This document shows positions 1 through 11,677 of a DNA stretch of 64,000 bases, in pieces; within the stretch, counting starts at the first letter, position 1; every line of letters starts with the position of its first letter. Origin of the DNA: Polyangiaceae bacterium LLY-WYZ-15_(1-7) (GTDB lineage Bacteria > Myxococcota_A > Polyangia > Polyangiales > Houyiibacteriaceae); the NCBI GenBank assembly GCA_031800675.1, contig DAPKRU010000165.1:790-64789 (forward strand). Reading direction: 5' to 3'. The notes under the pieces are model-generated. The model saw only the letters and a list, made by a program, of their open reading frames with translations, did not search any database and was not told the origin of the DNA. Position numbers and translations under genes: made by a program.

Positions 1-530
1 TCGCGGAGGGGCTCACGCAGGCGGTGCAGCGCTCGCAGCAGCGCATGCAGGAGGTCGCCGTGCGCAAGGGCATGCACGGGGACATGGGGAGCACGCTCAC
101 CATGGGCTACCTGAGCTGGCCCATGCTCTACCTGGTGCACGTCGGCGACAGCCGCGCGTACCTGCTCCGGAGCGGGGAGCTCTTCCGGCTCACGCGGGAC
201 CACAACCTCGCCGAGGAGATGGTCCGCATGAACGTGATGACCGAGGACGAGGCGCGCTCGTCCCGCTTCGCGAGCGTGCTGACGAACTCGATCGGGACGT
301 CGGAGAAGGAGATCCGGGTGGAGCTCCATCAGGTGGAGCTGCGCCGCGGGGACAAGGTGCTCCTCTGCACGGATGGGCTCTACGGCGAGGTGCCGGACAA
401 GGACATCAAGGGCCGGTTGATGCACGTGGTGGCGCCGGACCTGGTGGCGCCGTGCGTGCAGTCGCTCATCCAGGCGGCGCGGGACGGCGGCGGGCGCGAC
501 AACATCACGGCCGTGCTCGCGCTCTTCTGA
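1..530 (+). CDS. PP2C-family Ser/Thr protein phosphatase, C-terminal part (5' end lies outside the window)
   Basis: The frame is open from base 3. Motifs HVGDSRAYLL, LLCTDGL and GGRDNITAVL are typical of the PPM/PP2C catalytic domain. Stop at 528-530. Confidence 0.8.
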   Translation, partial: AEGLTQAVQRSQQRMQEVAVRKGMHGDMGSTLTMGYLSWPMLYLVHVGDSRAYLLRSGELFRLTRDHNLAEEMVRMNVMTEDEARSSRFASVLTNSIGTSEKEIRVELHQVELRRGDKVLLCTDGLYGEVPDKDIKGRLMHVVAPDLVAPCVQSLIQAARDGGGRDNITAVLALF

Positions 531-552
531 GGGGCGCTCTCTCGGAAGCCCC

Positions 553-639
553 GCTGTCCCCGCGCGCGGGGAGGCCCCTCGTAGCTGGTCGCCGTGGTCG
601 TCCGAAAGACGCTGCTGTCCCCGCGCGCGGGGAGGCCCC
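553..639. repeat. Two copies of a 26-bp element (gctgtccccgcgcgcggggaggcccc), each containing the 14-nt palindrome CCCCGCGCGCGGGG
   Basis: Identical copies read at 553-578 and 614-639, just downstream of the phosphatase stop codon. Confidence 0.8.
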
Positions 640-717
640 GCCAGGGGCGCGCCGTCCTGCAGCGCCTGCGGAGCGCCCCGGCTCGCGTCAGGCGGTCCGC
701 TGGGGGACGGGCCGCTA

Positions 718-777
718 GGATGCCGTCCGTTCGGATGCCGTCCGTTTGGATGGCGCCCGTTTGGATGCCGTCCGGGT
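718..777. repeat. 15-bp tandem repeat x4 (ggatgccgtccgttY)
   Basis: Read directly at 718-732, 733-747, 748-762 (2 substitutions) and 763-777 (3' end diverged). It ends about 40 nt upstream of the acyl-CoA dehydrogenase ATG. Confidence 0.85.
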
Positions 778-817
778 CGCCGCTGAATGGTGATTCATTC
801 GGGTGTATGCTGTCGCG

Positions 818-1969
818 ATGAAGCAGCGGCGGTACCTCTTCGAGCAGGACGAGCATGCGCAGCTCCGGGCGGAGATGCGGAAGTTCGCGCGGAACGCGAT
901 CGCGCCCCACGCGCACGAGTGGGAGGAGGCCGGGATCTTCCCGCGGGCGCTCTACGCGGAGGCCGCCGAGGCGGGGATGCTGGGGCTCGGCTACCCCGAG
1001 GCGCTCGGCGGGAGCGGCGGGGACTTCTCGCACGTGCTGGTGGCGGCCGAGGAGATCGTGCTCGAGGGGAAGAGCGTCGGTACCTGTGTGGGGCTCGGGA
1101 GCCACGGCATCGCGCTCCCGCCGATCGTGAACTTCGGCAGCGACGCGCAGAAGGAGCGCTTCGTGCGGCCGGTGCTCGAGGGAAAGAAGATCGCCGCGCT
1201 CGGCATCACGGAGCCGGGCGGCGGGAGCGACGTGGCGGGCCTCCGCACCAAGGCGGTGCGGGACGGGGACCACTACGTGGTGAACGGGAGCAAGACCTTC
1301 ATCACGTCGGGGACGCGGGCGGACTTCGTGACGACGGCGGTGCGCACGGGCGGCGAAGGACACGGGGGCATCTCGCTGCTCGTGATCGAGGCGGACACGC
1401 CCGGCTTCTCGGTGGGGAAGAAGCTCGCGAAGACGGGCTGGTGGGCGAGCGATACGGCCGAGCTGGTCTTCGAGGACTGCCGCGTGCCGGTGGCGAACCT
1501 CATCGGCCAGGAGAACGCCGGCTTCGTCGCGATCATGATGAACTTCGTGAGCGAGCGACTGATGCTCGCGGCGCAGTGCGTGGCCATCGCGGAGCTCGCG
1601 TACCGGGAGACGGTGGCCTACGCGCGGGAGCGGCGGGCGTTCGGGAAGACGCTCACGGGCTTCCAGGTGACGCGGCACAAGCTCGCGGAGATGAGCACGC
1701 GGATCGCGGCGGCGCGGGCGCTGACCGGCGAGTGCGTCGCGCGCTCCCTGGCCGGCGAGAACGACGCGGGGCTCGCGGCGATGGCGAAGAACACGGCGAC
1801 GGATGCGTGCAGCTGGGTCTGCGACCAGGCGGTGCAGATCCACGGCGGCTACGGCTACATGCGCGAGTACGTCGTCGAGCGGCTCTACCGCGACGCGCGC
1901 CTCTACCCGATCGGCGGGGGCACGCGGGAGATCATGAACGAGATCATCGCGAAGACGGAGAGCTACTGA
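818..1969 (+). CDS. Acyl-CoA dehydrogenase
   Basis: The 383-aa product is ACAD-like over its full length (GITEPGGGSDVAGLRT, YVVNGSKTFITSG, IHGGYGYMREY, GGGTREIM). ATG at 818; an in-frame GTG at 803 is an alternative start. Confidence 0.92.
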   Translation: MKQRRYLFEQDEHAQLRAEMRKFARNAIAPHAHEWEEAGIFPRALYAEAAEAGMLGLGYPEALGGSGGDFSHVLVAAEEIVLEGKSVGTCVGLGSHGIALPPIVNFGSDAQKERFVRPVLEGKKIAALGITEPGGGSDVAGLRTKAVRDGDHYVVNGSKTFITSGTRADFVTTAVRTGGEGHGGISLLVIEADTPGFSVGKKLAKTGWWASDTAELVFEDCRVPVANLIGQENAGFVAIMMNFVSERLMLAAQCVAIAELAYRETVAYARERRAFGKTLTGFQVTRHKLAEMSTRIAAARALTGECVARSLAGENDAGLAAMAKNTATDACSWVCDQAVQIHGGYGYMREYVVERLYRDARLYPIGGGTREIMNEIIAKTESY

Positions 1970-2020
1970 CGCCGCCGGGCGGGGCTCGCTCAGAGCGCCG
2001 TCTGGCGGTCGCCGCGCCCG

Positions 2021-2212
2021 TCACATCGGGTCTTCGAACTCGTCGGGGGGCGGCGGCTCCTCCATCTCGTCTTCCCCGCCCGTCGTGTAGGTCTCGTCGG
2101 TGGGGGTCGTGCCGTCGTCGGTGCCCTCGGAGCCGCCGTCCCCGCCGCCGCAGGCGACGAAGAGGGGGAGGGCGAGGAGGGTGGCCAGGAGCGTGCGTCG
2201 AAGTCCGGTCAT
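2021..2212 (-). CDS. Small acidic lipoprotein (63 aa), function unknown
   Basis: MTGLRRTLLATLLALPLFVAC-GGGDGG has a signal peptide plus a lipobox-like Cys. The mature part is D/E/T/G/P-rich with no further Cys. Third codon positions are almost all G/C. It lies 89 nt downstream of the DUF2063 gene on the same strand. Confidence 0.6.
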   Translation of the reverse strand: MTGLRRTLLATLLALPLFVACGGGDGGSEGTDDGTTPTDETYTTGGEDEMEEPPPPDEFEDPM

Positions 2213-2301
2213 GTCGTGGGTCTCGATGCGCCAGCGTGGGCGTGGCGGGTAGGTAGGGCGAGACAGCGGCAGCGGCGAGGGGTTCCGCGCCGCGGCCGCG
2301 T

Positions 2302-3060
2302 TCAGGCGCGGCTCCCCAGGAGGATACCGCGGCCGAGGAAGTCCTCCAGCAAGCTGGAGAGGCCGTCGATGAAGCGGGCGTCGATGGCGGTGCCGCGGGC
2401 CTGGGCCACGGCCTGGACGGCCTCGGTCATGGTGCGGTCGCCGGGGATCCACGCGCGGAGGAGATCGCGCGCGAGCTCGTTCAGCTCCATGGTCACGGCC
2501 TGGAAGCTCTCCGGGTCGCGGTAGATGCAGAGGTGGAGCGGCGTGGGCTCGTAGCGCTTCGCCTTCTTGCGCGGCACGGTCCAGCCGACCTCCAGGAGGG
2601 TCAGGGCGGGGCTCACGACGGGCGGGCGCTCGAAGCCGAACTCGGGGGCGAGCGGCGGGAGGTCGGCGTCGTCCGCGGACTTCACGGTCCACTCGGCGAG
2701 CTCGTAGCGGGCCAGGTCCGGGAGCCAGCCCTCCTCGCGCGCCTCGAGGCGCGGGGCGAGGTGCGCCGCGAACTGGGCGGGGACCTCGCGGAAGAAGCGC
2801 GTCGAGGGGGGGGCCTCGGCCAGCCAGGAGACGAAGGCCGCCTCGAAGGCCTCGGGGCCGAGGGCCTTCTTCGTGCGGGGGAGGGCGGCGCCGCAGACGC
2901 GGCGGAGCCGGGTGCGGACCATGTTGCGGTAGATGCGCCAGATGCGCGCGTCGCCGAGGCGGGCGAGCTCTTCGTCGCCGGCCTGGGGCGCGAAGCAGAG
3001 GCGGGTCACCTCGGCCTCGTGCTCGACGAGGCTCAGGCCGCTGAGGGCCGGGGCGGTCAC
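2302..3060 (-). CDS. DUF2063-family protein, the partner subunit type found with MNIO/DUF692 enzymes
   Basis: 252 aa. The GTG start (3060-3058) overlaps the TGA stop (3059-3057) of the upstream DUF692 gene as GTGA. Length and sequence character fit DUF2063, and the pairing with DUF692 is the canonical arrangement. Confidence 0.78.
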   Translation of the reverse strand: MTAPALSGLSLVEHEAEVTRLCFAPQAGDEELARLGDARIWRIYRNMVRTRLRRVCGAALPRTKKALGPEAFEAAFVSWLAEAPPSTRFFREVPAQFAAHLAPRLEAREEGWLPDLARYELAEWTVKSADDADLPPLAPEFGFERPPVVSPALTLLEVGWTVPRKKAKRYEPTPLHLCIYRDPESFQAVTMELNELARDLLRAWIPGDRTMTEAVQAVAQARGTAIDARFIDGLSSLLEDFLGRGILLGSRA

Positions 3061-3938
3061 GCGGCCTCCTCGCCGACCGCGTCGCGGTAGATGGCGTTCA
3101 GACGGCGAACCTCGGCGAGGAGCTCGCCGAGGGAGGGGATGTTGTTGTCGCGCTCGAGGAGCACGGGGCGCGGGCCGGTGCGGCGGAGCGTGTAGTCGAG
3201 GAGCTCGTAGACGCCCTCGGGGATGGGCTCGCCGTGCGTGTCGATGCGCAGGCCGTCGTCGCGCACGAGGTGCCCGGCGACGTGCATCTGGACGACGCGC
3301 TCGGGGGGGACCAGGTCGATCCAGGCCTTTGGATCGAAGCCGAAGTTGCGGCTGTTCACGAAGACGTTGTTCACGTCGAGCATGAGCTTGGCGTCGGCGC
3401 GCTCGAGGACCTCGACGCAGAAGCGCGCCTCGTCGAGCGGGTCGGCGGACATGGGCGCGTAGTAGCTGACGTTCTCGAAGGCGAGCTCGCGATCGATGGC
3501 GTCGCGGACCTCCGTGAAGCGCTGCGTGACGGTGTCGAGCGCCTCGTCCGTGAAGGGGATGGGGAGGAGATCGTGGGCGAAGGCGCCGCCCGCGCCGCCG
3601 AAGCAGAGGTGGTCGCTGTGCCAGGGGGTGTCCACGTCGGCGAGGAAGCGCTTCAGCTGGGCGAGGTAGGTGGCGTCGAAGGGCTCGAGCTGGCCGAAGC
3701 AGGTGGTCAGGCCGTGCGTGAGGACCGGGTAGAGGTCCTGGGCGCGCGCGAGGTTCTGCCGGTAGCGGCCGCCGCGGGCGACGTAGTTCTCCGGGTGGAC
3801 CTCGACGAAGGCGACGTCGTCGGGTTTCGCTTCGAGGAAGGCCTGGGCCATGTCGACGCGGAGGCCGAGGCCGATGCCCTGGGGGATGGTGCTCATGGTG
3901 ATCCGGTCGGCGGGGGCGACCCGCTCGGTGGCCGCCAC
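3057..3938 (-). CDS. DUF692 / multinuclear non-heme iron oxidase (MNIO, MbnB/TglH/BufB-type) family protein
   Basis: TIM-barrel DUF692 hallmarks are present: GIGLGLR, FVEVHPENY, THGL, WHSDHLCF, FENVSYY, LDVNNVFVN and HVAGH (candidate metal-ligand His/Glu/Asp). GTG start at 3938; an ATG at 3896 is an alternative. Confidence 0.9.
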   Translation of the reverse strand: MAATERVAPADRITMSTIPQGIGLGLRVDMAQAFLEAKPDDVAFVEVHPENYVARGGRYRQNLARAQDLYPVLTHGLTTCFGQLEPFDATYLAQLKRFLADVDTPWHSDHLCFGGAGGAFAHDLLPIPFTDEALDTVTQRFTEVRDAIDRELAFENVSYYAPMSADPLDEARFCVEVLERADAKLMLDVNNVFVNSRNFGFDPKAWIDLVPPERVVQMHVAGHLVRDDGLRIDTHGEPIPEGVYELLDYTLRRTGPRPVLLERDNNIPSLGELLAEVRRLNAIYRDAVGEEAA

Positions 3939-4055
3939 CCTAGCAGCCGCGTCGCCTGGTCGTCGCGGGTCCCGGAGCCCTACGCGGCGGGCCAGGGTGC
4001 GTTTCGTCTCGCGGGCGTCGGTCAGGGGGCTGCCTCGTCGGGAGCCCCGAAACGC

Positions 4056-4091
4056 GAAACGCCGCGGCGCTCGAGAGCGCCACGGCGTTTC
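4056..4091 (-). terminator. Strong hairpin between the precursor gene and the MNIO gene (candidate attenuator or partial terminator)
   Basis: On the minus-strand RNA: GAAACGCCGUGGCGCUC-UC-GAGCGCCGCGGCGUUUC. The arms are 17 nt with one G-U pair, and GCGUUUCGGGG follows. It lies 22 nt after the precursor stop. Confidence 0.5.
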
Positions 4092-4112
4092 ACGTACGGA
4101 CGAGTCCGCGGC

Positions 4113-4379
4113 TCAGCCGCAGGAGCCCTCGCCGCAGGACGCCTCGCCGGCGCCCTCGGCCTCGCCGCCGCAGCTGGCCTCGCCGCCGCAGGACGCCTCG
4201 GTGCCCTCCTCGGTGGCCTCGCCGCCGCAGGACGCCTCACCGCCGCAGGACGCCTCGGTGGCCTCCTCGCCGCCGGTCGACGACTCCGCCGCCTCGGGCT
4301 CCTCGCTGCCGCCGCCGCAGCCGAAGCCGAGCGCCGCCGTCGCCATCGCCACGAGCGTGGTCTTGAAAGCCGAGTTCAT
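4113..4379 (-). CDS. Secreted (lipobox-like) Cys/Glu-rich repeat peptide, candidate RiPP precursor for the adjacent MNIO/DUF2063 pair
   Basis: 88 aa: MNSAFKTTLVAMATAALGFGC|GGGSEEPEAAESSTGGEEATEASCGGEASCGGEATEEGTEASCGGEASCGGEAEGAGEASCGEGSCG. GGAGG lies 6 nt upstream of the ATG at 4379. It sits directly upstream of and co-directional with the DUF692 gene. Confidence 0.8.
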   Translation of the reverse strand: MNSAFKTTLVAMATAALGFGCGGGSEEPEAAESSTGGEEATEASCGGEASCGGEATEEGTEASCGGEASCGGEAEGAGEASCGEGSCG

Positions 4380-4645
4380 TGCAACCTCCAGGTATTCGGC
4401 GGCGCCGGTGGCCCGCCATCGCATCGTTTCCACTCACCGCGCCCCCGGCATCGGACCCTCGATGGCCCGCGTCCAGTGACGCGCCGCCCCTCAGCGAGGG
4501 CACGGAGAATGAATTGTTGCGGGACGCTACCCCAAGGCCCTTCGCTTCAGCAAGCGCCAGCACGAAAGGCTTTTCCCGGAGCGCCGCCCCGTCCATCGCT
4601 CCCCCCGTATGCCGGCGGGAGGCGATAGTTTCGCCCGGAGCCTCC

Positions 4646-6205
4646 ATGGAGATCGAGAAATCGACGGACGGCCGCGCCGAGGGACCCCATACACGCTCCA
4701 TGGGGTCGCCCGTCGCGCCGCTGATCGTCTCCGCCCTGCTCGGCGTGCTCGCGCTCGGGGGAGCCGGCTGCGGGGCCGCGGCCCGGGGCTCGGCCGAGCG
4801 ATCGCCCGGCGAGCGGAACAGCGCGGGAGGCGGCGCAGACGGCGGCGGAAGCGGCGCCCCGAGCGGCCGGACGAGCGGCGTGCGCTACCTCGTGCGTGCG
4901 GACGCGGCGCTGACGCGCCTGCGGGTCGAGGCCTGCTTCGATGGAGCGCCGCCCGCTCGCATCGCGCCCGCGAGCCGCGACGCGCTCGGGGCGGCCCTCG
5001 AGGTGCGGGGGAGCGACGGCAGGGCCTTCCCGCTCGGCGCCGATGGGGCGCGGCTGGAGGGGCTCGCGCCCGGCGCCTGCGTGCACTACGCGCTCGACCT
5101 CGAGCGGGCGACCTGGGGCCGGGGCGCGGTGCGGAGCGGCGGCGATCTGCTGCTCGCCCAGACCCACTTCCTCTGGCGCCCGGAGCCGATGCCGCGCGGG
5201 CTGGACGTGCGGCTCCGCCTCGAGCTGCCGGAGGGCCTGCACGCCTCGGCGCCCTTCCTGCGCCCCGGCGTCGACGAGCACGTGCTCCGCCCCTCCATCC
5301 TGCGGGTCATCGGGAACGTCGCCTTCGTCCGGGAGCCGCCGCTCCGCTTCGAGGAGGGCGGCGCCGAGGTCGAGGTGGCGCAGCTGCGCGGGGCGCTCCG
5401 GGCCGACCGCGAAGACGTGAAGCGCTGGATCGCCGAGGCCGTGCGCTGCGTCTCGCTCGTGGACGGGCGCTTCCCGCGGGAGCGGCTCCACGTGGTGGTC
5501 GTGCCGGTCGGGCCGGGCGCGCGGCCGGTGGCCTTCGGCCTGGTCCGCCGAGGGGGCGGGCCCTCGGTGATGCTCCTCGCGCACGCGAACGCCGCGCCGG
5601 AGGCGCTGCTCCGGGACTGGACGGCGGTGCACGAGCTCAGCCACCTGGCGATGCCGCGCATGTACGAGGAGGACCGCTGGCTCTCGGAGGGCTTCGCCAC
5701 CTACTACCAGGAGATCCTGCGCGGGCGCGGGGGCCTGCTCTCGGAGGAGGAGGTCTGGGCGCGCTTCCTCGACGGCTTCGACCGGGGCCGGGCCGTGGGC
5801 ACCTCGCGCTCGCTCTGGCGCGAGTCGGCGACGGTCCACCAGACGGGGGCCTATCGGCGCATCTACTGGGCCGGGGCGGCCTACTTCCTCGCGGCGGACG
5901 TGCGGCTCCGGCAGCGCGGCCGGAGCCTGGACGAGCTGGTGGGCGCGGGCCGGGCGCTCTGGGGGCGCCGCGGGGGGGCCTGGGAGGGGCGCGAGGTGCT
6001 CCGGGCCATGGACGCGCGCCTCGAGGCGCCGACGCTGCTGCCGCTGGCCGAGCGCTGGGGCGACGCCCGCGGCTTCCCGGACGTCGAGGCGCTCCTCGAG
6101 GAGCTCGGTGTGCGACGGCGCGGCGACGGCGTCGTGCTGGACGACGCGGCGCCGCTCGCCGCCGTGCGCCGGGCCCTGCTCCGCGCCCCGCTCAGCGCCG
6201 AATGA
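4646..6205 (+). CDS. Gluzincin-type (M1/M61-like) zinc metallopeptidase, probable lipoprotein
   Basis: HELSH followed by WLSEGFATYY (an HExxH...E gluzincin signature). Signal LIVSALLGVLALGGAGC. ATG at 4646 has GGAG 5 nt upstream; ATG at 4700 is an alternative. It is divergent from the precursor gene. Confidence 0.72.
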   Translation: MEIEKSTDGRAEGPHTRSMGSPVAPLIVSALLGVLALGGAGCGAAARGSAERSPGERNSAGGGADGGGSGAPSGRTSGVRYLVRADAALTRLRVEACFDGAPPARIAPASRDALGAALEVRGSDGRAFPLGADGARLEGLAPGACVHYALDLERATWGRGAVRSGGDLLLAQTHFLWRPEPMPRGLDVRLRLELPEGLHASAPFLRPGVDEHVLRPSILRVIGNVAFVREPPLRFEEGGAEVEVAQLRGALRADREDVKRWIAEAVRCVSLVDGRFPRERLHVVVVPVGPGARPVAFGLVRRGGGPSVMLLAHANAAPEALLRDWTAVHELSHLAMPRMYEEDRWLSEGFATYYQEILRGRGGLLSEEEVWARFLDGFDRGRAVGTSRSLWRESATVHQTGAYRRIYWAGAAYFLAADVRLRQRGRSLDELVGAGRALWGRRGGAWEGREVLRAMDARLEAPTLLPLAERWGDARGFPDVEALLEELGVRRRGDGVVLDDAAPLAAVRRALLRAPLSAE

Positions 6206-7661
6206 CGTCGAGGACGAGCGGCTCGAGGCTCGGGGCGCGCCGGCCGATGGTGAAGGCGCCGGCGACGCGCTCGACCACGGAGGCGACCTTCCGCCGCTGC
6301 TTCGGGTGCACGTGGAGGCGCGCGAGGGGCTGGCCCTTCTTCACCTTCTCGCCGGGCTTGGCGTCGATGGTGATGCCCACGGCCGGGTCCACGTCCTGAT
6401 CGCTCCGCGTGCGGCCGGCGCCGAGGGAGACGCTCGACCAGCCGATCTCGAAGGCGTCGATGCCCGTGACGAAGCCTGCCTTCGGCGCCGGGACCTCGAG
6501 GGTGGACTTCGCGATCGCGAGCCGGTCCGGCTCGGCGACGACGCGCGGGTCGCCGCCCTGGGCCTTCACGATCTTCTCCATCACGCGGATCGCCTCGCCG
6601 CTCGCGATGGCGGCCTCGAGCTTCTTCCGCGCGTCCTTCTCCGAGCGCGCCGCGCCGCCGAGGCGGAGCATCTCCACGGCCAGCGCCATGGTGCAGTCGA
6701 TCAGATCCTCCGGGCCCTCGCCGTGGAGCACGCGGAGCGCCTCGGCCGTCTCGATGGCGTTGCCGACCGTGCGCCCGAGCGGCGCGTCCATGCGGGTGAG
6801 GATCGCCGTGACCTTCTTCCCGGCGAGGCGGCCGACGCGGACGATGCTCTTGGCGAGCTCCGTGGCCTGCTCGGGCGTCTTCATGAAGGCGCCCTTGCCG
6901 ACCTTCACGTCGAGCACGAGCGCGTCGATGCCCTCGGCGAGCTTCTTGGAGAGGATGCTCGCCGTGATCAGCGGGACCGACTCGATGGTCGCCGTCACGT
7001 CGCGGAGCGCGTAGAGCTGCCGGTCCGCCGGGGCGAGCTCGGCGGTCTGCTTGAAGAGGGAGCAGCCGACCTTCTTCAGCTGGGAGGCGAAGCGCTTCGT
7101 GCTCATGTCCATGCGGAAGCCCGGGATCGCCTCGAGCTTGTCCACCGTGCCGCCGGTGTGGCCGAGGCCGCGGCCGCTGATCATGGGGACGGGGACGCCG
7201 CAGGCCGCCACGAGCGGGGCGAGGCAGATGCTGACCTTGTCGCCGACGCCGCCCGTGCTGTGCTTGTCGACCTTCACGCCGGGCACGGACGAGAGGTCCA
7301 TGACCGTCCCGCTGTCGCGCATGGCGAGCGTGAGCGCCGCCGTCTCCTTCGGCGTCATGCCGCGGAAGAACGTGGCCATGGCGAAGGCGGCCATCTGGTA
7401 GTCGGTGACGCCGCCGTCGACGTAGCCCTCGACCAGCTGCTGGATCTCCGCCTCGGCGAGGGCGCCTCCGTCGCGCTTCTTGGCGATGAGCTCCGGCGTC
7501 GTCGGGGACGCGGCGGGCTTCTTCGCGGGCGCCTTCGTCGACGCGCGCCGCGTCTTCGCGGGCTTCTTCGCGGGCTTTTTCGCGGGCTTTTTCGCGGGCT
7601 TTTTCGCGGTGCGCTTCGCGGGCTTCTTCGAGGACTTCTTCGCGCTCTTCTTCGCGGCCAT
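6192..7661 (-). CDS. deoA: Thymidine (pyrimidine-nucleoside) phosphorylase with an N-terminal Lys/Ala/Pro-rich tail
   Basis: KHSTGGVGDK, SGRGLGHTGGTVDKLE and the C-terminal PYNP domain are present. The first ~52 aa are AKKP-type repeats. This is the real gene at the 3' end of the spurious 1789-aa ORF. Confidence 0.9.
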   Translation of the reverse strand: MAAKKSAKKSSKKPAKRTAKKPAKKPAKKPAKKPAKTRRASTKAPAKKPAASPTTPELIAKKRDGGALAEAEIQQLVEGYVDGGVTDYQMAAFAMATFFRGMTPKETAALTLAMRDSGTVMDLSSVPGVKVDKHSTGGVGDKVSICLAPLVAACGVPVPMISGRGLGHTGGTVDKLEAIPGFRMDMSTKRFASQLKKVGCSLFKQTAELAPADRQLYALRDVTATIESVPLITASILSKKLAEGIDALVLDVKVGKGAFMKTPEQATELAKSIVRVGRLAGKKVTAILTRMDAPLGRTVGNAIETAEALRVLHGEGPEDLIDCTMALAVEMLRLGGAARSEKDARKKLEAAIASGEAIRVMEKIVKAQGGDPRVVAEPDRLAIAKSTLEVPAPKAGFVTGIDAFEIGWSSVSLGAGRTRSDQDVDPAVGITIDAKPGEKVKKGQPLARLHVHPKQRRKVASVVERVAGAFTIGRRAPSLEPLVLDVIRR

Positions 7662-7750
7662 GCGCGCGACCCTACCCGACCGGGCGGCCCGGCGGTACTC
7701 CGCGGCGCCGCGGCCCTCCGAGGCCCGCGGCGTCGCGCTCTCCCGCGCGC

Positions 7751-10156
7751 TCAGCGCTTCTTGCGGCGCGTGCGGCGGCGCTTCTTCTGGCCGCCGCCGT
7801 CCTGCTGCGCCTGCTTCTGCTTCGACGGCCGCGTGCGGCGCCGCTTGGGCGCGTCCCCGCCGTCCTGCTCGCGTCGCGCCTGCCGCTTGCGCTGGCCGCC
7901 GCGCCCGCCGCCGCCGCGCTTGCGGCGCTGGCCCTCGCCCTGCTTCTGCTTGGACGAGCGCGAGCGCCGCCGCCCGCGATCCTCGCCCTCCTCGTCGCGC
8001 AGGCCGGCGTCGAGGGGGATGGCGGTGATCTCCCGCTCGGGGACGTTCACGTTCTCGATCCGCACGGTGACCCGGTCGCCCATGCTGAACATGCGCCCGC
8101 TGCGGAGGCCGATGAGCCGGATCCCCAGCTCGTCGAGCTCGTAGTAGTCCTGCAGCCGGTTCACCGGGACCATCGCCTCGACGTAGGGATCGTCGAGGGC
8201 GACCCGGAAGCCGTAGTGGTCCACGGTGGAGACGCGCCCCTCGAACTCCTCGCCGACGCGGTCGCGCATCAGGATGGTCCGGTAGAGCTGCACCACGTCG
8301 CGCTCGACCTGCATGGCGCGGCGCTCGAGCCGGCTCGCCTCGGCGGCCGCCTTGCGCATCTTCGGCAGCATGGTCGCGCCGTCGATGGCCTCGCCGCGGA
8401 GCAGCTTCTTCACCACGCGGTGCACGACCATGTCCGGGTAGCGACGGATCGGCGAGGTGAAGTGCAGGTAGTCCTTCGCCGCCAGGCCGAAGTGGCCGAC
8501 GTCGCCGTTCGTGTCGTAGGAGGCCTGCTGCATCGCGCGGAGCAGCAGGTAGCGGAGCACGGGCGCCTCGTCCCGCCCCTCGATCTTCCGGAGGAACTTC
8601 GAGAGCTGCTTCGGGTCCCGCGCCTGCTCGGCGTCGATGTCGTGACCGAGCGCCGAGGCGAGCTGGGCGAAGGTGCCGATCTTCTTCTCGTCGGGCTTGC
8701 CGTGGACTCGGTAGATGGCCGGCACGCCCTGGCGCTTGAGCTCGCCGGCGACGAGCTCGTTCGCGAGGAGCATCATCTCCTCGACCATGCGGTAGGCCTC
8801 CCGGACGCCCGGGTCGCTGCGGCTCTCGCGGCAGTCGATGGGCTCGACGTTCTCGTCGTCGAGGAGGACCTTCGGCTCCGGGAGATCGAAGTCGAGGGCG
8901 CCGCGGCGGAGGCGGCGCTTGCGGAGCTTGCGGGTGAGCTCGAGGAGCGCGCTCAGGTTGTCGACGCGCTTCTCGGCGGCGGGCTGGCGCGGGCCCTCGT
9001 CCGTGAGATCGAGCGCGCGGGCGACGCCCTCGTAGGTGAGCTTGCCGCGGCTCCGCATCACGCCCTCGAAGAGGCGGTAGTGCTTGACGATGCCGGTCTT
9101 GGAGAGCTCGGCCTCGACGCCCATGCAGAGCCGGTCCTTGTTCGGGACGAGCGAGGCGAGGTGCGAGCTGAGCTCCGGCGGGAGCATGGGGATCGCGCGG
9201 TCGGGCAGGTAGATGCTGCAGCTCCGCGCGAGGGCCTCCTCGTCGAGGCGCGTGCCCGGGCGCACGTAGTGGGAGACGTCGGCGATGCAGATGACGACCC
9301 GGTAGCCGTCCTTCGTGCGCTCGCAGAAGAGGGCGTCGTCGTGGTCGCGGGCGTCGAAGGGGTCGATGGTGCAGAGGTCGACGTCGCGCAGGTCCTCGCG
9401 GCCCTTCTTGTCGCGCTGGGGCACCCGGTCGGGGAAGGCGGCGGCCTCCTCCTTCACGTCCTCGGGGAACTCCTCGACGACGTTCTCGCGGATCTTGATC
9501 TTCGTGACCTCGACGGTCGTCATGCCGCGCACGCCGAGGTTCTCGACGATCTCGGCGGCGGCCAGGTCGTCGGGCCCCTGCGGGAAGCGCGCGAGGCGCG
9601 CGACGATGGCCTGGTCGGAGCCCTTCTTCTTCGGCGGCTTGCCGAGGAGGAGCACCGGCGCGCGGAGGCGCGGGTCGTCGGGCTGGATGACGTACTGCTT
9701 GCCCTGGCGCTCGAGCGTGCCCGTGAAGCGCTCGGGGCGGCGCTGGAGCACGGAGATGACCGTGCCCTCGCGACCCTTGGGCGAGGGGCGGGCGATGATC
9801 TCGACCCGGTCCCCGTGGAGGGCGGCGCCCATGGCGCCGGGCGGGATGAAGACGTCGTCGCCGCCGTCGTCGGTGGAGACGAAGCCGAAGCCCCGCGGGT
9901 TCATGGTGAGCACGCCCTCGATCGTGCCTTCGGCGGCGACGGGGGGCGGCGGGGGCATCTGCTTCTTGATGCGGAAGCGGTGGCCGGGCATCTCGGTGAC
10001 GAGGCCCAGGGCGTGGAGCTCGTCGAGGACGTCGAGCATCTCGTCCTTGCGGGACTTGGCGACGCCGAGGCGTCCGCAGATTTCGGCGACGTGGAGGGCT
10101 CGCGGCGCGCGATCGCGCAGCGCGTCCATCACGCTCTCTCGTTCGATGGGGTTCAT
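7751..10156 (-). CDS. rnr: Ribonuclease R (3'-5' exoribonuclease, RNB family) with a basic C-terminal tail
   Basis: 801 aa with an RNB catalytic core (TIDPFDARDHDDALF, HFGLAAKDYLHFTSPIRRYPD), an S1-like C-terminus, and a K/R-rich tail. Confidence 0.92.
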   Translation of the reverse strand: MNPIERESVMDALRDRAPRALHVAEICGRLGVAKSRKDEMLDVLDELHALGLVTEMPGHRFRIKKQMPPPPPVAAEGTIEGVLTMNPRGFGFVSTDDGGDDVFIPPGAMGAALHGDRVEIIARPSPKGREGTVISVLQRRPERFTGTLERQGKQYVIQPDDPRLRAPVLLLGKPPKKKGSDQAIVARLARFPQGPDDLAAAEIVENLGVRGMTTVEVTKIKIRENVVEEFPEDVKEEAAAFPDRVPQRDKKGREDLRDVDLCTIDPFDARDHDDALFCERTKDGYRVVICIADVSHYVRPGTRLDEEALARSCSIYLPDRAIPMLPPELSSHLASLVPNKDRLCMGVEAELSKTGIVKHYRLFEGVMRSRGKLTYEGVARALDLTDEGPRQPAAEKRVDNLSALLELTRKLRKRRLRRGALDFDLPEPKVLLDDENVEPIDCRESRSDPGVREAYRMVEEMMLLANELVAGELKRQGVPAIYRVHGKPDEKKIGTFAQLASALGHDIDAEQARDPKQLSKFLRKIEGRDEAPVLRYLLLRAMQQASYDTNGDVGHFGLAAKDYLHFTSPIRRYPDMVVHRVVKKLLRGEAIDGATMLPKMRKAAAEASRLERRAMQVERDVVQLYRTILMRDRVGEEFEGRVSTVDHYGFRVALDDPYVEAMVPVNRLQDYYELDELGIRLIGLRSGRMFSMGDRVTVRIENVNVPEREITAIPLDAGLRDEEGEDRGRRRSRSSKQKQGEGQRRKRGGGGRGGQRKRQARREQDGGDAPKRRRTRPSKQKQAQQDGGGQKKRRRTRRKKR

Positions 10157-10300
10157 GTGGTTTCGTGGGGTGGGCCCGCGGGACCGGTCGCGGTCGCGGC
10201 GGCGCAGAAGGGCGCGGCCGACCGGAGGGTCGCCGAGCGGGCGTGATTGGAAAAGGGGAGGGGGGTCGGGGCGTCGCTCCGGGAGCGCGGTGCGCGGATG

Positions 10301-11677
10301 TCAGCGCAGCGCGTGGAGCCCGCCGTCGTCGGCGCCCACGTAGAGGGTGCCGTCGGGCGCGAGGGCGGCCGTCGAGTCGACGTCCTGCCCCAGGTTGTGG
10401 CGCCAGAGGACCTCGCCCTCGGCAGAGATGGCATAGAAGAAGTCGTCTTGCGAGCCGACGTAGATCCGGCCGGCGGCGTCGATGCGCGCCGAAGCCCGGA
10501 TGCGGCCCGAGGTGGCCACCTTCCAGCGGAGCTCCCCGGTGGGGCTCAGCGCGTAGAGGTGGCGGTCGTAGGAGCCGACGACGATGGTGCCGTCGGCGGC
10601 GATGGCGGGGGTGGCGCGGACGTCCTCGCCGGTCTCGTAGCGCCAGCGCTCGCGTCCGTCTGGACCCAGGGCCAGAACGTGGCCACGATCGGTCCCGATG
10701 TAAATGGTGCCGTCCTCGGCGATGGAGGCGCCGCCGTCGATGCTGGCGCCCGCGGGGGTGCGCCAGGCGACCTGGCCCGAGGGCTCGACGGCGAGGACCT
10801 CGCCCTCCGGGGTGCCGACCACGACCTGCCCGTTCGGGTGGAGCGCCGGGGAGCTCCGGATGTGGCTCGCCGTGGGGACGTGCCAGCGGACGGCGCCGGC
10901 CGGGTCGATGGCGTAGACGCCCTCGGCGGCGGCGTAGACGGTGCCGTCCGGGCCGATCACGGGGCTCGCGTCGACCTCGTCGTGGAGGTCGAGGCGCCAG
11001 CGCACCTGGCCCGTGGGGTCGAGGGCGGTGAGCGTGCCGTCGTCGCTGCCGACGTAGACGGTGCCGTCCTCGGCCACGGCGGCGGTCGCGTAGATCTTGT
11101 CGCCGGCCGTGTAGCGCCAGCGGAGGCGTCCGTCGGCGGCGACGGCGGCGAAGCTGCGATCGAGCGAGCCGATGTAGACGGTTCCGTCGGGGCCGACGAC
11201 GGGCGAGGCGAAGACGCGGGCGCGGGTGCGGTGGACCCAGCGCTGCTCGGGGGCCTCGGCCGGGCCCGTGTGGACGCTCCGCCCGTGGTGGCGCGGGCTG
11301 CCCATGAACATGGCCCGGTCCGGCGTCGGCTCGGTCTCGGCGGGCGGGCCCGCGTCGGCGGCCGCTCCGGCGTCCTCGGCCGGGGCCACCGGGCCGGCGT
11401 CCGGCGGGGTCGCCGTGCTCGACTCCGCATGCGTCCCGGTCAGCTCGGCCTCGACCTCGGCCAGGAAGCGGCACCGGCCCTCGTGGCAGATCCGGTCGGC
11501 GCGGCACTCGCGGTCCGACATGCAGGGCACGGGCTGGGTCGGTCCCTGGCGCGCTCCGCACGAGGCGAGGGCGGACGCGAGCGGGAGCGCGAGGACGAGG
11601 GTCCGCGCCAGGCGGGCGACCGGCGCCCGCGGCGCGGTGGCGGGGCGGCCGGAGCCGTTCACGTCCTGAGGCGTCAC
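10301..11677 (-). CDS. PQQ-like beta-propeller repeat lipoprotein
   Basis: Signal ...LASALASC. N-terminal Cys motif CMSDRECRADRICHEGRC. At least 8 repeats of the 'DGT(V/I)Y(V/I)GS.D..l.A....G...W' type. Confidence 0.8.
   Translation of the reverse strand: MTPQDVNGSGRPATAPRAPVARLARTLVLALPLASALASCGARQGPTQPVPCMSDRECRADRICHEGRCRFLAEVEAELTGTHAESSTATPPDAGPVAPAEDAGAAADAGPPAETEPTPDRAMFMGSPRHHGRSVHTGPAEAPEQRWVHRTRARVFASPVVGPDGTVYIGSLDRSFAAVAADGRLRWRYTAGDKIYATAAVAEDGTVYVGSDDGTLTALDPTGQVRWRLDLHDEVDASPVIGPDGTVYAAAEGVYAIDPAGAVRWHVPTASHIRSSPALHPNGQVVVGTPEGEVLAVEPSGQVAWRTPAGASIDGGASIAEDGTIYIGTDRGHVLALGPDGRERWRYETGEDVRATPAIAADGTIVVGSYDRHLYALSPTGELRWKVATSGRIRASARIDAAGRIYVGSQDDFFYAISAEGEVLWRHNLGQDVDSTAALAPDGTLYVGADDGGLHALR

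Follow-up and report, generated by a model that had tools for sequence, protein, structure and literature searches.

Gene order and precursor peptide

We describe a compact locus at positions 2021-6205 of a 64,000-nucleotide (nt) stretch of contig DAPKRU010000165.1, from Polyangiaceae bacterium LLY-WYZ-15_(1-7). The whole stretch is called the window here, and all coordinates are counted in it. The locus holds the gene of a Cys-rich precursor peptide, that of a multinuclear non-heme iron oxidase (MNIO, DUF692) and that of a DUF2063-type partner. Gene order was compared with 80 related loci, labelled L###. Four co-directional genes fill the minus strand from 2021 to 4379, and a peptidase-like gene runs divergently from them:

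4113..4379 (-): precursor peptide gene, 88 amino acids (aa); open reading frame (ORF), homologues, lipobox signal and ExSCG motifs
4317..4379 (-): signal peptide and lipobox, MNSAFKTTLVAMATAALGFG followed by C, with Cys21 as the predicted diacylglycerol site; PROSITE PS51257-type pattern, invariant column
4116..4269 (-): repeat-built core, 57-nt (19-aa) unit in 2.8 copies, two ExSCG per unit; Tandem Repeats Finder
about 4053..4094 (-): GC-rich hairpin, 19-bp stem and 4-nt loop; fold energy, positional conservation
3057..3938 (-): MNIO (DUF692) maturase, 293 aa as called, alternative ATG at residue 15; PF05114
3057..3060 (-): GTGA stop/start overlap of the MNIO and partner genes; sequence
2302..3060 (-): DUF2063/HvfC-type partner, 252 aa; PF09836 and PF22106
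2021..2212 (-): acidic lipoprotein, 63 aa; ORF, conservation in the closest loci
4646..6205 (alternative start 4700) (+): divergent gluzincin, a predicted lipoprotein with modelled M61/M1 fold, 519 aa; AlphaFold2 (AF2) model, Foldseek, invariant residues
4380..4645 (no strand): divergent intergenic (promoter) region between the precursor and peptidase genes; short conserved blocks

A preliminary description of this DNA, made from the letters alone, had placed an 88-residue signal-peptide gene ahead of a strong hairpin, and both were found where it put them. The precursor starts MNSAFKTTLVAMATAALGFGC, and GGAGG lies 7 nt upstream of its ATG. It has seven Cys residues, one of them the lipobox Cys21 and the other six each inside an ExSCG 5-mer. 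The core runs through EASCGGEASCGGE twice, giving two CGGEASC pairs, and closes with a C-terminal EASCGEGSCG, which gives a CGEGSC pair; set against the EGKCG 5-mer and CGEGKC pair of known precursors, it keeps E, C and G and has Ser in the place of Lys, with one pair spaced Cx4C and two Cx5C. The mature part of 68 residues carries a net charge of -17 and has no basic residue after Cys21. At the DNA level, Tandem Repeats Finder reports a 57-nt period in 2.8 copies, which encodes a 19-aa unit with two Cys. The core had been described as a tandem repeat with no likeness to a DUF2282 fold, and this was borne out: the window precursor matches no DUF2282 or BufA2 model, and a single one of 34 homologues touches BufA2 (E 0.02).

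The spacer of 174 nt between the precursor and MNIO genes contains the hairpin, which has a free energy of -53 kcal/mol; compared with shuffles, the spacer as a whole has a folding z-score of -3.2. A similar GC-rich hairpin, with a differing stem sequence and often followed by a T-run, stands in the same position in about 28 of 30 related loci. Because its position is kept so widely, the hairpin is a conserved feature and not a product of chance. A promoter/terminator scan, built for T-rich terminators, did not call it, the T-run in the window being weak. Its probable role is that of a partial terminator, or of an element stabilising the mRNA, through which more precursor than enzyme is made.

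The order precursor, hairpin, MNIO, partner is kept in more than 40 loci. A chance low-complexity ORF was considered for the precursor and rejected, since ORF and synteny are conserved across those same loci. The identical stretch also occurs on marine metagenome contigs, for example in a Tara Oceans assembly, where gene callers predicted all of the small genes.

Searching a large protein collection with the precursor yielded 103 homologues, and those with a name come from Polyangiales, Sandaracinaceae or 'Myxococcales' metagenome-assembled genomes. Clustering at 90% identity gives about 100 clusters for the clade, and a profile search (E up to 0.001) among representatives at 50% identity gives 96. 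Its consensus reads MNSALKHTIIAMATAAL-x-TA-[AG]-C-KSDDGPE ... EASCGEGSCG ... EASCGEGSCG. Over the family, EASCG occurs 175 times, EGSCG 143 times and EGKCG three times. Most members have two Cys pairs, the window precursor three; Cx4C is the dominant spacing (158), and the Cx5C seen in the window is a minority type (18). The residue at +2 after the lipobox Cys is Lys in 53 of the 104 members (window protein included) and Gly in the window peptide. In Myxococcus xanthus, Lys at +2 goes with inner-membrane lipoproteins.

Some loci depart from a single precursor of this kind. L008 (5196-5444, 5557-5847) and L010 (about 5250-5497, 5607-5888) each have, upstream of a single MNIO gene, a tandem pair of precursor genes from this family, one with three or four EASCG motifs and the other with two pairs. 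Further lipobox precursor types occur in MNIO paralogue loci of Polyangia (L049, L064, L069 and L073 of Nannocystis; L047, L067 and L068; L051, L057, L061, L066, L070, L075-L077 and L080). Among them are DGSCGA[NK]K repeats (Cx7C) in Nannocystis, QAGSCG repeats, and Ala/Pro-rich lipoproteins of 120-180 aa with a single C-terminal SCGAGTC(G/S) pair. Five database 'homologues' (P0200, P0201, P0205, P0209 and P0224) share the signal peptide and first acidic stretch and then continue into unrelated basic sequence; in all likelihood they are not real variants and reflect frameshifts in genes called on short metagenome contigs.

Relation to known precursors and maturases

The preliminary description measured the precursor against DUF2282 proteins, 6/12-Cys bufferins and MbnA, and so overlooked a third group, HvfA/oxazolin (Buf_EGKCG), which proved to be the relevant one. 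HvfA of Haemophilus influenzae, a signal-peptide precursor of 95 aa, contains the repeat AEGKCGEGKCG three times; each of its six Cys is oxidised by HvfBC (-4 Da), and one Cu(I) is bound per pair. The modifications have since been reassigned as 5-thiooxazoles. Antoine et al. put the 'Buf_EGKCG/oxazolin' family at about 2,000 proteins, and the 17-residue two-motif repeats described in it parallel the 19-aa two-motif unit of the window. The family is also called 'captophorin Lys-Cys', and its members are built of repeated ExxCG 5-mers in pairs. MNIO and DUF2063 clusters have been grouped as "captophorins", and the census of Gadgil et al. lists 74 clusters from Myxococcota.

The window resembles hvfABC(X) of nontypeable H. 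influenzae in gene order (precursor, MNIO, DUF2063 partner), in precursor size (88 against 95 aa), in the N-terminal Sec signal and in having three ExxCG pairs towards the C-terminus; its MNIO is closest to the HvfB model. By analogy with the oxazolin one would expect -4 Da per Cys, 5-thiooxazoles and one Cu(I) per pair. The differences are also several. Ser replaces Lys before each Cys, making the window peptide strongly acidic and not basic, two of its pairs are Cx5C, its signal is of the signal peptidase II (SPII) type whereas that of HvfA is for signal peptidase I (SPI), and the N-terminal disulfide pair of HvfA is missing. The window has no DoxX (HvfX), a component that is frequent but not universal in HvfA-family clusters. 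MNIO and partner fall below the hvf equivalog cut-offs, the precursor misses the HvfA models, and the host belongs to Myxococcota, not Pseudomonadota.

The link to HvfA was reached only through homologues and the clade profile, not through the window precursor itself. The NCBIfam model of the HvfA family, NF050137 (cut-off 19.5 bits), is not reached by the window protein. It is matched by 24 of 34 homologues, and six of the ten examined exceed the cut-off (20.5-28.6 bits). Run against 1.84 billion representatives, the clade profile retrieved 96 proteins, and the weaker matches are classical EGKCGEGKCG proteins and proteins mixing EGSCG with EGKCG or EGRCG. On a hidden Markov model built from Lys-type double motifs only, the EASCGEGSCG of the window scores 12.4 bits, equalled by one of 20,000 composition-preserving shuffles. 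BLASTP of the window precursor against NgoA gives E 1e-6. As judged by these comparisons, the clade overlaps the HvfA family, though the window member itself escapes the model, and the precursor belongs to a Polyangia clade whose profile matches grade into the classical EGKCG oxazolins.

Ser before the modified Cys has a precedent. The gonophorin NgoA of Neisseria gonorrhoeae has three (Q/E)GSCG and four EGKCG motifs, and all seven Cys are modified, so the motif context of the window is a proven substrate type of the NgoA/B/C system. With FonBC, Lys can be exchanged for Ala, Arg or Thr, and a small residue must follow the Cys; the window motifs, with a small polar residue at the Lys position and a small one after Cys, agree with both. 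NgoA and FonA differ from the window in mixing Ser-Cys with Lys-Cys motifs, in being basic and in carrying SPI signals. The bufferins Buf1 (DUF2282) and Buf2 (6/12-Cys) share with the window an MNIO-PME1 pair and a Sec-exported Cys precursor, and their thiooxazole chemistry and copper buffering are predicted for the window peptide too. The window differs in having a low-complexity repeat and not a folded domain, no DUF2282 or Buf2 match, and neither sigma/anti-sigma genes nor DoxX.

In the literature searched, which did not extend to the supplementary list of the 'DAG-RiPP' paper (RiPP, ribosomally synthesised and post-translationally modified peptide), we found no description of EASCG/EGSCG (Ser-Cys) precursors from myxobacteria. 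Among the rows listed in the per-genome Table S2 of Antoine et al., Sorangium and Haliangium have 3-5 MNIO genes each and no recognised bufferin or EGKCG precursor, which bears on the clade only indirectly. The suggestion that this is an undescribed variant system therefore needs to be divided. The precursor clade overlaps the HvfA/oxazolin family (24 of 34 homologues match NF050137), and the reservation made at the outset, that novelty would fall with an already catalogued bufferin subfamily, largely applies at the family level. What stands is that the window protein itself is uncaptured by the curated models and that the Ser-Cys clade is undescribed in the literature searched.

For the two enzymes, the family assignments proposed in the preliminary description held in profile searches. 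The 293-aa protein matches PF05114 (MbnB_TglH_ChrH) at 303.5 bits (cut-off 25; E 1.5e-90), its residues 21-283 covering positions 1-261 of the 263 in the profile. The 252-aa partner matches PF09836 at 41.2 bits (cut-off 27.2) and PF22106 at 34.9 bits (cut-off 27), corresponding to an N-terminal DUF2063 domain and a C-terminal domain of NGO1945 type; it is a PME1 protein, with a RiPP recognition element. The closest solved structure to the MNIO by sequence is PDB 3bww (E 1.7e-51), an MNIO of Histophilus somni placed by Gadgil et al. in a bona fide RiPP cluster. A sequence search of solved structures returned none matching the HvfC-like partner.

The partner gene directly follows the MNIO gene in all 80 related loci. 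The GTGA overlap at 3057-3060, pointed out earlier, is real, and the same 4-nt overlap recurs in relatives such as L002 and L081; as far as gene arrangement can tell, it implies translational coupling of the two proteins.

We aligned the window MNIO with 80 relatives (81 sequences). At least 79 of the 81 share H75, H110, E155, D188, N191, H219, D233, H235, E262 and D264. By comparison with MbnB structures, the first nine of these are putative Fe ligands. D264 aligns with the ERD motif that holds the catalytic base D249 of FonB. In FonB, an Arg-Arg near the N-terminus and an Asp-Phe occupy positions shown to govern substrate choice, and the MNIOs of the NgoA/FonA captophorins have R-R and D-F there. 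The corresponding window residues are R27-V28 and D264-N265, and neither the second-position Arg nor the Phe after Asp is found in any of the 81 aligned MNIOs. On this alignment the specificity residues of the clade fit none of the three published groups. Because the window MNIO lacks the second Arg and the Phe, its regiochemistry or substrate handling could differ from that of the Lys-Cys enzymes.

Other MNIO systems were considered and set aside. A methanobactin-type system was rejected in view of a low MbnB score (38 bits), the lack of MbnC and the Sec signal on the precursor; ChrH, ApyH and TglH types were rejected on scores far below their cut-offs.

Proposed pathway, lipidation and copper

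In our view the product of the locus is likely to be a peptide metallophore of thiooxazole type that carries a lipid anchor, a myxobacterial Ser-Cys form of the oxazolin/bufferin ('captophorin') class. From the observed genes, motifs, synteny, fold and conserved residues we infer the chemistry, lipidation, metal binding and role of the protease, as follows. The precursor would be transcribed in excess, with the hairpin limiting read-through into the enzyme genes or stabilising the short transcript. The translationally coupled MNIO and HvfC-like partner would form a cytoplasmic complex that binds the precursor and oxidises every one of the six E[AG]SCG Cys by four electrons (-4 Da), yielding a 5-thiooxazole that incorporates the carbonyl of the Ser before it; this step is proposed because of homology and the published chemistry on HvfA, FonA, NgoA and NedA. 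After Sec export, Cys21 would gain diacylglycerol and SPII would cut before it, leaving a 68-residue polyanionic lipopeptide. Because its +2 residue is Gly rather than Lys, the lipopeptide would probably not be retained in the inner membrane. Thiooxazole pairs would bind Cu(I), up to three per molecule, and copper would thus be buffered or captured at the envelope. Less firmly, the divergent M61-fold peptidase may trim the modified peptide or free it from its anchor.

Several observations weigh against this proposal. The curated precursor models of NCBIfam and Pfam give no match for the window precursor even at E 10. The MNIO scores 284.9 bits on the HvfB equivalog NF003818 (cut-off 360) and 263.2 bits on the BufB equivalog NF050167 (cut-off 310), and the partner 90.1 bits on the NCBIfam HvfC equivalog (cut-off 142); by these scores HvfB and BufB are the nearest curated families of the window MNIO, and the enzyme lies outside both as curated. 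It is also without the second Arg and the Phe of Lys-Cys-type enzymes. Two of the three Cys pairs are Cx5C and not the canonical Cx4C, the locus has no DoxX, and nothing within the window ties it to copper. The lipoprotein status of the precursor is predicted from a sequence pattern.

Copper does appear next to close relatives. In L003 (5208-5981 (-)) and L005 (about 5069-5794 (-)), the divergent neighbour is a copper acquisition factor resembling BIM1 and lytic polysaccharide monooxygenases (PF20238, 27.8 bits). MNIO and partner in these two loci are 71-73% identical to those of the window and are the closest relatives that lack the Cys precursor; they also lack the M61-like gene. A BIM1-like factor beside these MNIOs is one independent hint at copper.

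Another reading keeps the logic of MNIO, partner and precursor and changes the outcome: the product could be an oxazolone-thioamide or another Cys-derived group, or the peptide could serve another soft metal or a redox role and not copper buffering. Gadgil et al. leave open whether the 5-thiooxazole is the sole MNIO-PME1 modification. The reading also draws on specificity positions that differ from those of the characterised Lys-Cys and Cys-Lys enzymes, on the missed equivalog cut-offs, on the lack of DoxX and of a copper gene in the window, and on a mature charge of -17, unlike that of the Lys-rich oxazolins. We nevertheless hold it to be unlikely, given that every characterised MNIO-PME1 pair makes 5-thiooxazoles, that the catalytic Asp is kept along with the putative Fe ligands, that NgoA undergoes at its GSCG motifs the modification seen at EGKCG, and that the BIM1-like copper factor stands beside the nearest relatives.

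The signal was described from the start as ending in a lipobox-like Cys. The window lipobox, L-G-F-G-C, fits the PROSITE PS51257-type pattern; the pattern is found in 104 of 104 family members, window protein included, and the C21 column is invariant. By pattern, then, all 104 show the marks of a DAG-RiPP, namely an SPII signal and a conserved lipobox Cys on a RiPP precursor. The DAG-RiPP paper (PNAS 2026) describes NedA, an EGKCG peptide with an SPII signal that is triacylated and modified at each motif, and about 16% of Buf2 bufferins are predicted lipoproteins. A lipobox is therefore not new in principle; it is universal rather than occasional in the Ser-Cys clade, as far as the pattern tells. 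The window resembles Lipo-NedABC of Neisseria dentiae in its SPII signal and lipobox Cys followed by repeated ExxCG. NedA is modified by a cytoplasmic MNIO and partner before export and lipidation, and by analogy the same is predicted for the window. Differences are that NedA uses EGKCG, with Lys, is betaproteobacterial and has no M61-type peptidase reported beside it, and that lipidation in the window is a prediction.

The peptide might instead be a soluble periplasmic or secreted product like HvfA, in which case Cys21 would merely happen to close an ordinary Sec signal, or would itself be modified or form a disulfide. SPI is used by HvfA and most oxazolins, L-G-F-G-C is not the textbook L-A-G-C, and the lipobox call comes from a pattern. 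Set against this are a Cys that is invariant and a lipobox present throughout the family though the residues around it vary, the +2 Lys of 53 members, associated in M. xanthus with inner-membrane lipoproteins, and NedA as an experimentally established lipidated oxazolin. We rate a soluble product as very improbable and keep the lipid-anchored metallophore as our working model.

The core of this model is not new: maturation of ExxCG repeats by MNIO and DUF2063 proteins to thiooxazole copper binders, modification at Ser-Cys-Gly and lipidation have all been published. What distinguishes the locus and its clade is the acidic motif that is Ser-Cys throughout, the obligatory lipobox, the differing MNIO specificity residues, the absence of DoxX, the recurrent M61-fold neighbour, and the acidic lipoprotein of the closest relatives. 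Found in marine and soil Polyangia, the clade lends itself naturally to testing how MNIOs select their Cys, and a member missed by the curated precursor models of NCBIfam and Pfam matters for genome mining.

Peptidase, acidic lipoprotein and flanking sequence

Both neighbours named in the preliminary description, a divergent gluzincin lipoprotein and a tiny acidic lipoprotein, are real. In the peptidase, H329, E330, H333, E348 and Y407 (HExxH and a downstream Glu) are invariant in 38 sequences. Its AF2 model (predicted local distance difference test 90) has a two-domain fold of M61/M1 type and ends after the helical domain. Foldseek places 7xyo, 4fgm and 8j9c at the top (probability 1.0; E 1e-17 to 2e-14), 7xyo being the best (E 1e-17). 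A sequence search of solved structures matched none, and a fold search was required. Against PF05299 (M61) the protein scores 18.6-18.7 bits, under the cut-off of 22, and several homologues carry a precomputed PF05299 match; a PDZ domain, typical of glycyl aminopeptidases, gave no Pfam match.

The structure 7xyo is MfuP, an M61 endopeptidase from a lanthipeptide cluster of Myxococcus fulvus that cuts the modified core peptide. The window enzyme is like this class II lanthipeptide protease in being its best structural match and in sharing a myxobacterial M61-fold zinc enzyme type. It is unlike MfuP in its identity of about 20%, in the RiPP class beside which it stands, in being a predicted lipoprotein and in having a substrate that is a candidate only.

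Of the 80 related loci, 40 have the peptidase gene next to the MNIO gene. It lies upstream in divergent or, in Nannocystaceae, co-directional orientation, or downstream in co-directional or convergent orientation, which makes four arrangements. The adjacency persists in a wholly different wider context in L081 and L082. Among paralogue loci, the M61-like gene goes with the repeat-type precursors and not with the long single-pair type. Because the close relatives L009, L014, L015 and L022 lack the peptidase, though they keep the thymidine phosphorylase and acyl-CoA dehydrogenase genes, it is not obligatory. The MNIO-adjacent peptidase clade consists of lipoproteins, whereas the distant non-myxobacterial homologues have SPI signals; of homologues outside Myxococcota, none was found beside an MNIO gene. 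The literature searched, including the published MNIO surveys consulted, holds no link between M61 proteins and MNIO clusters.

At the other end of the operon, about 90 nt after the partner gene, lies the gene of the acidic lipoprotein, whose mature part of 43 aa has a net charge of -15 and the conserved motifs TDETYTT and PPEPxYxDP. It directly follows the partner gene in seven of the closest loci and lies about 1.4 kb downstream in an eighth, L010; it is kept downstream of the partner in L003 and L005, where the Cys precursor is absent. A homologue search with the protein returned a single sequence, and conservation was read from the related loci instead. It has a weak NCBIfam match (E 5e-4, below cut-off) to a 'lipo-invert putative C-terminal anchoring domain', which is probably compositional (signal peptide and a Gly/acidic stretch). 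The protein may be an accessory or a second substrate.

Peptidase and acidic lipoprotein may be unrelated neighbours by inherited synteny, the functional unit being precursor, MNIO and partner only. The peptidase is absent from 40 of the 80 loci, among them the four close relatives with their surrounding genes kept; its homologues outside Myxococcota do not stand beside MNIO genes; the acidic lipoprotein occurs in only eight loci; and the MNIO surveys consulted do not mention M61. Pulling the other way, the adjacency survives in four arrangements and in the different context of L081/L082, the MNIO-adjacent peptidases are lipoproteins like the substrate while distant homologues carry SPI signals, and MfuP, the nearest solved structure, is the M61 endopeptidase of a myxobacterial RiPP cluster that cuts a modified core. 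To us the matter is evenly poised.

The peptidase may be taken as a candidate processing or release protease for the lipopeptide, which is a weaker proposal than the maturation steps. In its specific form, to which we lend only tentative belief, the M61-fold lipoprotein would be a dedicated tailoring enzyme of the lipid-anchored thiooxazole peptide and would cut the modified, tethered peptide, releasing it or dividing it into Cu-binding modules. If so, release of the metallophore would be a regulated step at the cell surface. It would also answer a question that Gadgil et al. leave open for the EGKCG pathway, whether the products stay one polypeptide or are proteolytically digested; in either case the recurrent M61-fold lipoprotein is a concrete candidate for deciding the proteolytic fate of such peptides. 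That the acidic lipoprotein is a second, non-Cys substrate of the same MNIO is a bolder idea, separate from the tailoring role and less probable again.

No DoxX, sigma/anti-sigma pair or exporter had been seen nearby. On the identical contig L085, no Pfam match to DoxX or to sigma-70/anti-sigma families occurs within about 9 kb on either side, and L081-L083 likewise have no DoxX Pfam match. The exporter part of the claim does not hold as firmly: because several flanking genes (458, 557 and 647 aa) are without any Pfam match, one of them may encode a transporter.

A scan of the 4380-4645 region found no sigma-70 promoter. Close relatives keep the blocks GCGAAAC, GCATACG and CTTGG-TAGCGTC upstream of the precursor gene, and GAGTGGAACCGAT directly before GGAGG; aligning the upstream regions gave such short conserved blocks and no recognisable regulator site.

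ORFs at 380-1843 (-), 787-2256 (+), 3234-4628 (+) and 6192-11561 (-) were rejected as genes, since they overlap real ones and are artefacts of about 70% G+C. One of them, 1789 aa long, runs through the phosphorylase and RNase R genes. Downstream of the peptidase, at 6192-7655 (-), lies a thymidine/pyrimidine-nucleoside phosphorylase gene with all three Pfam domains present. The enzyme has an N-terminal extension of about 50 aa (about 7500-7655) with Lys/Ala/Pro repeats, AKKSAKKSSKKPAKRTAKKPAKKPAKKPAKKPAK, that resembles histone-H1-like tails.

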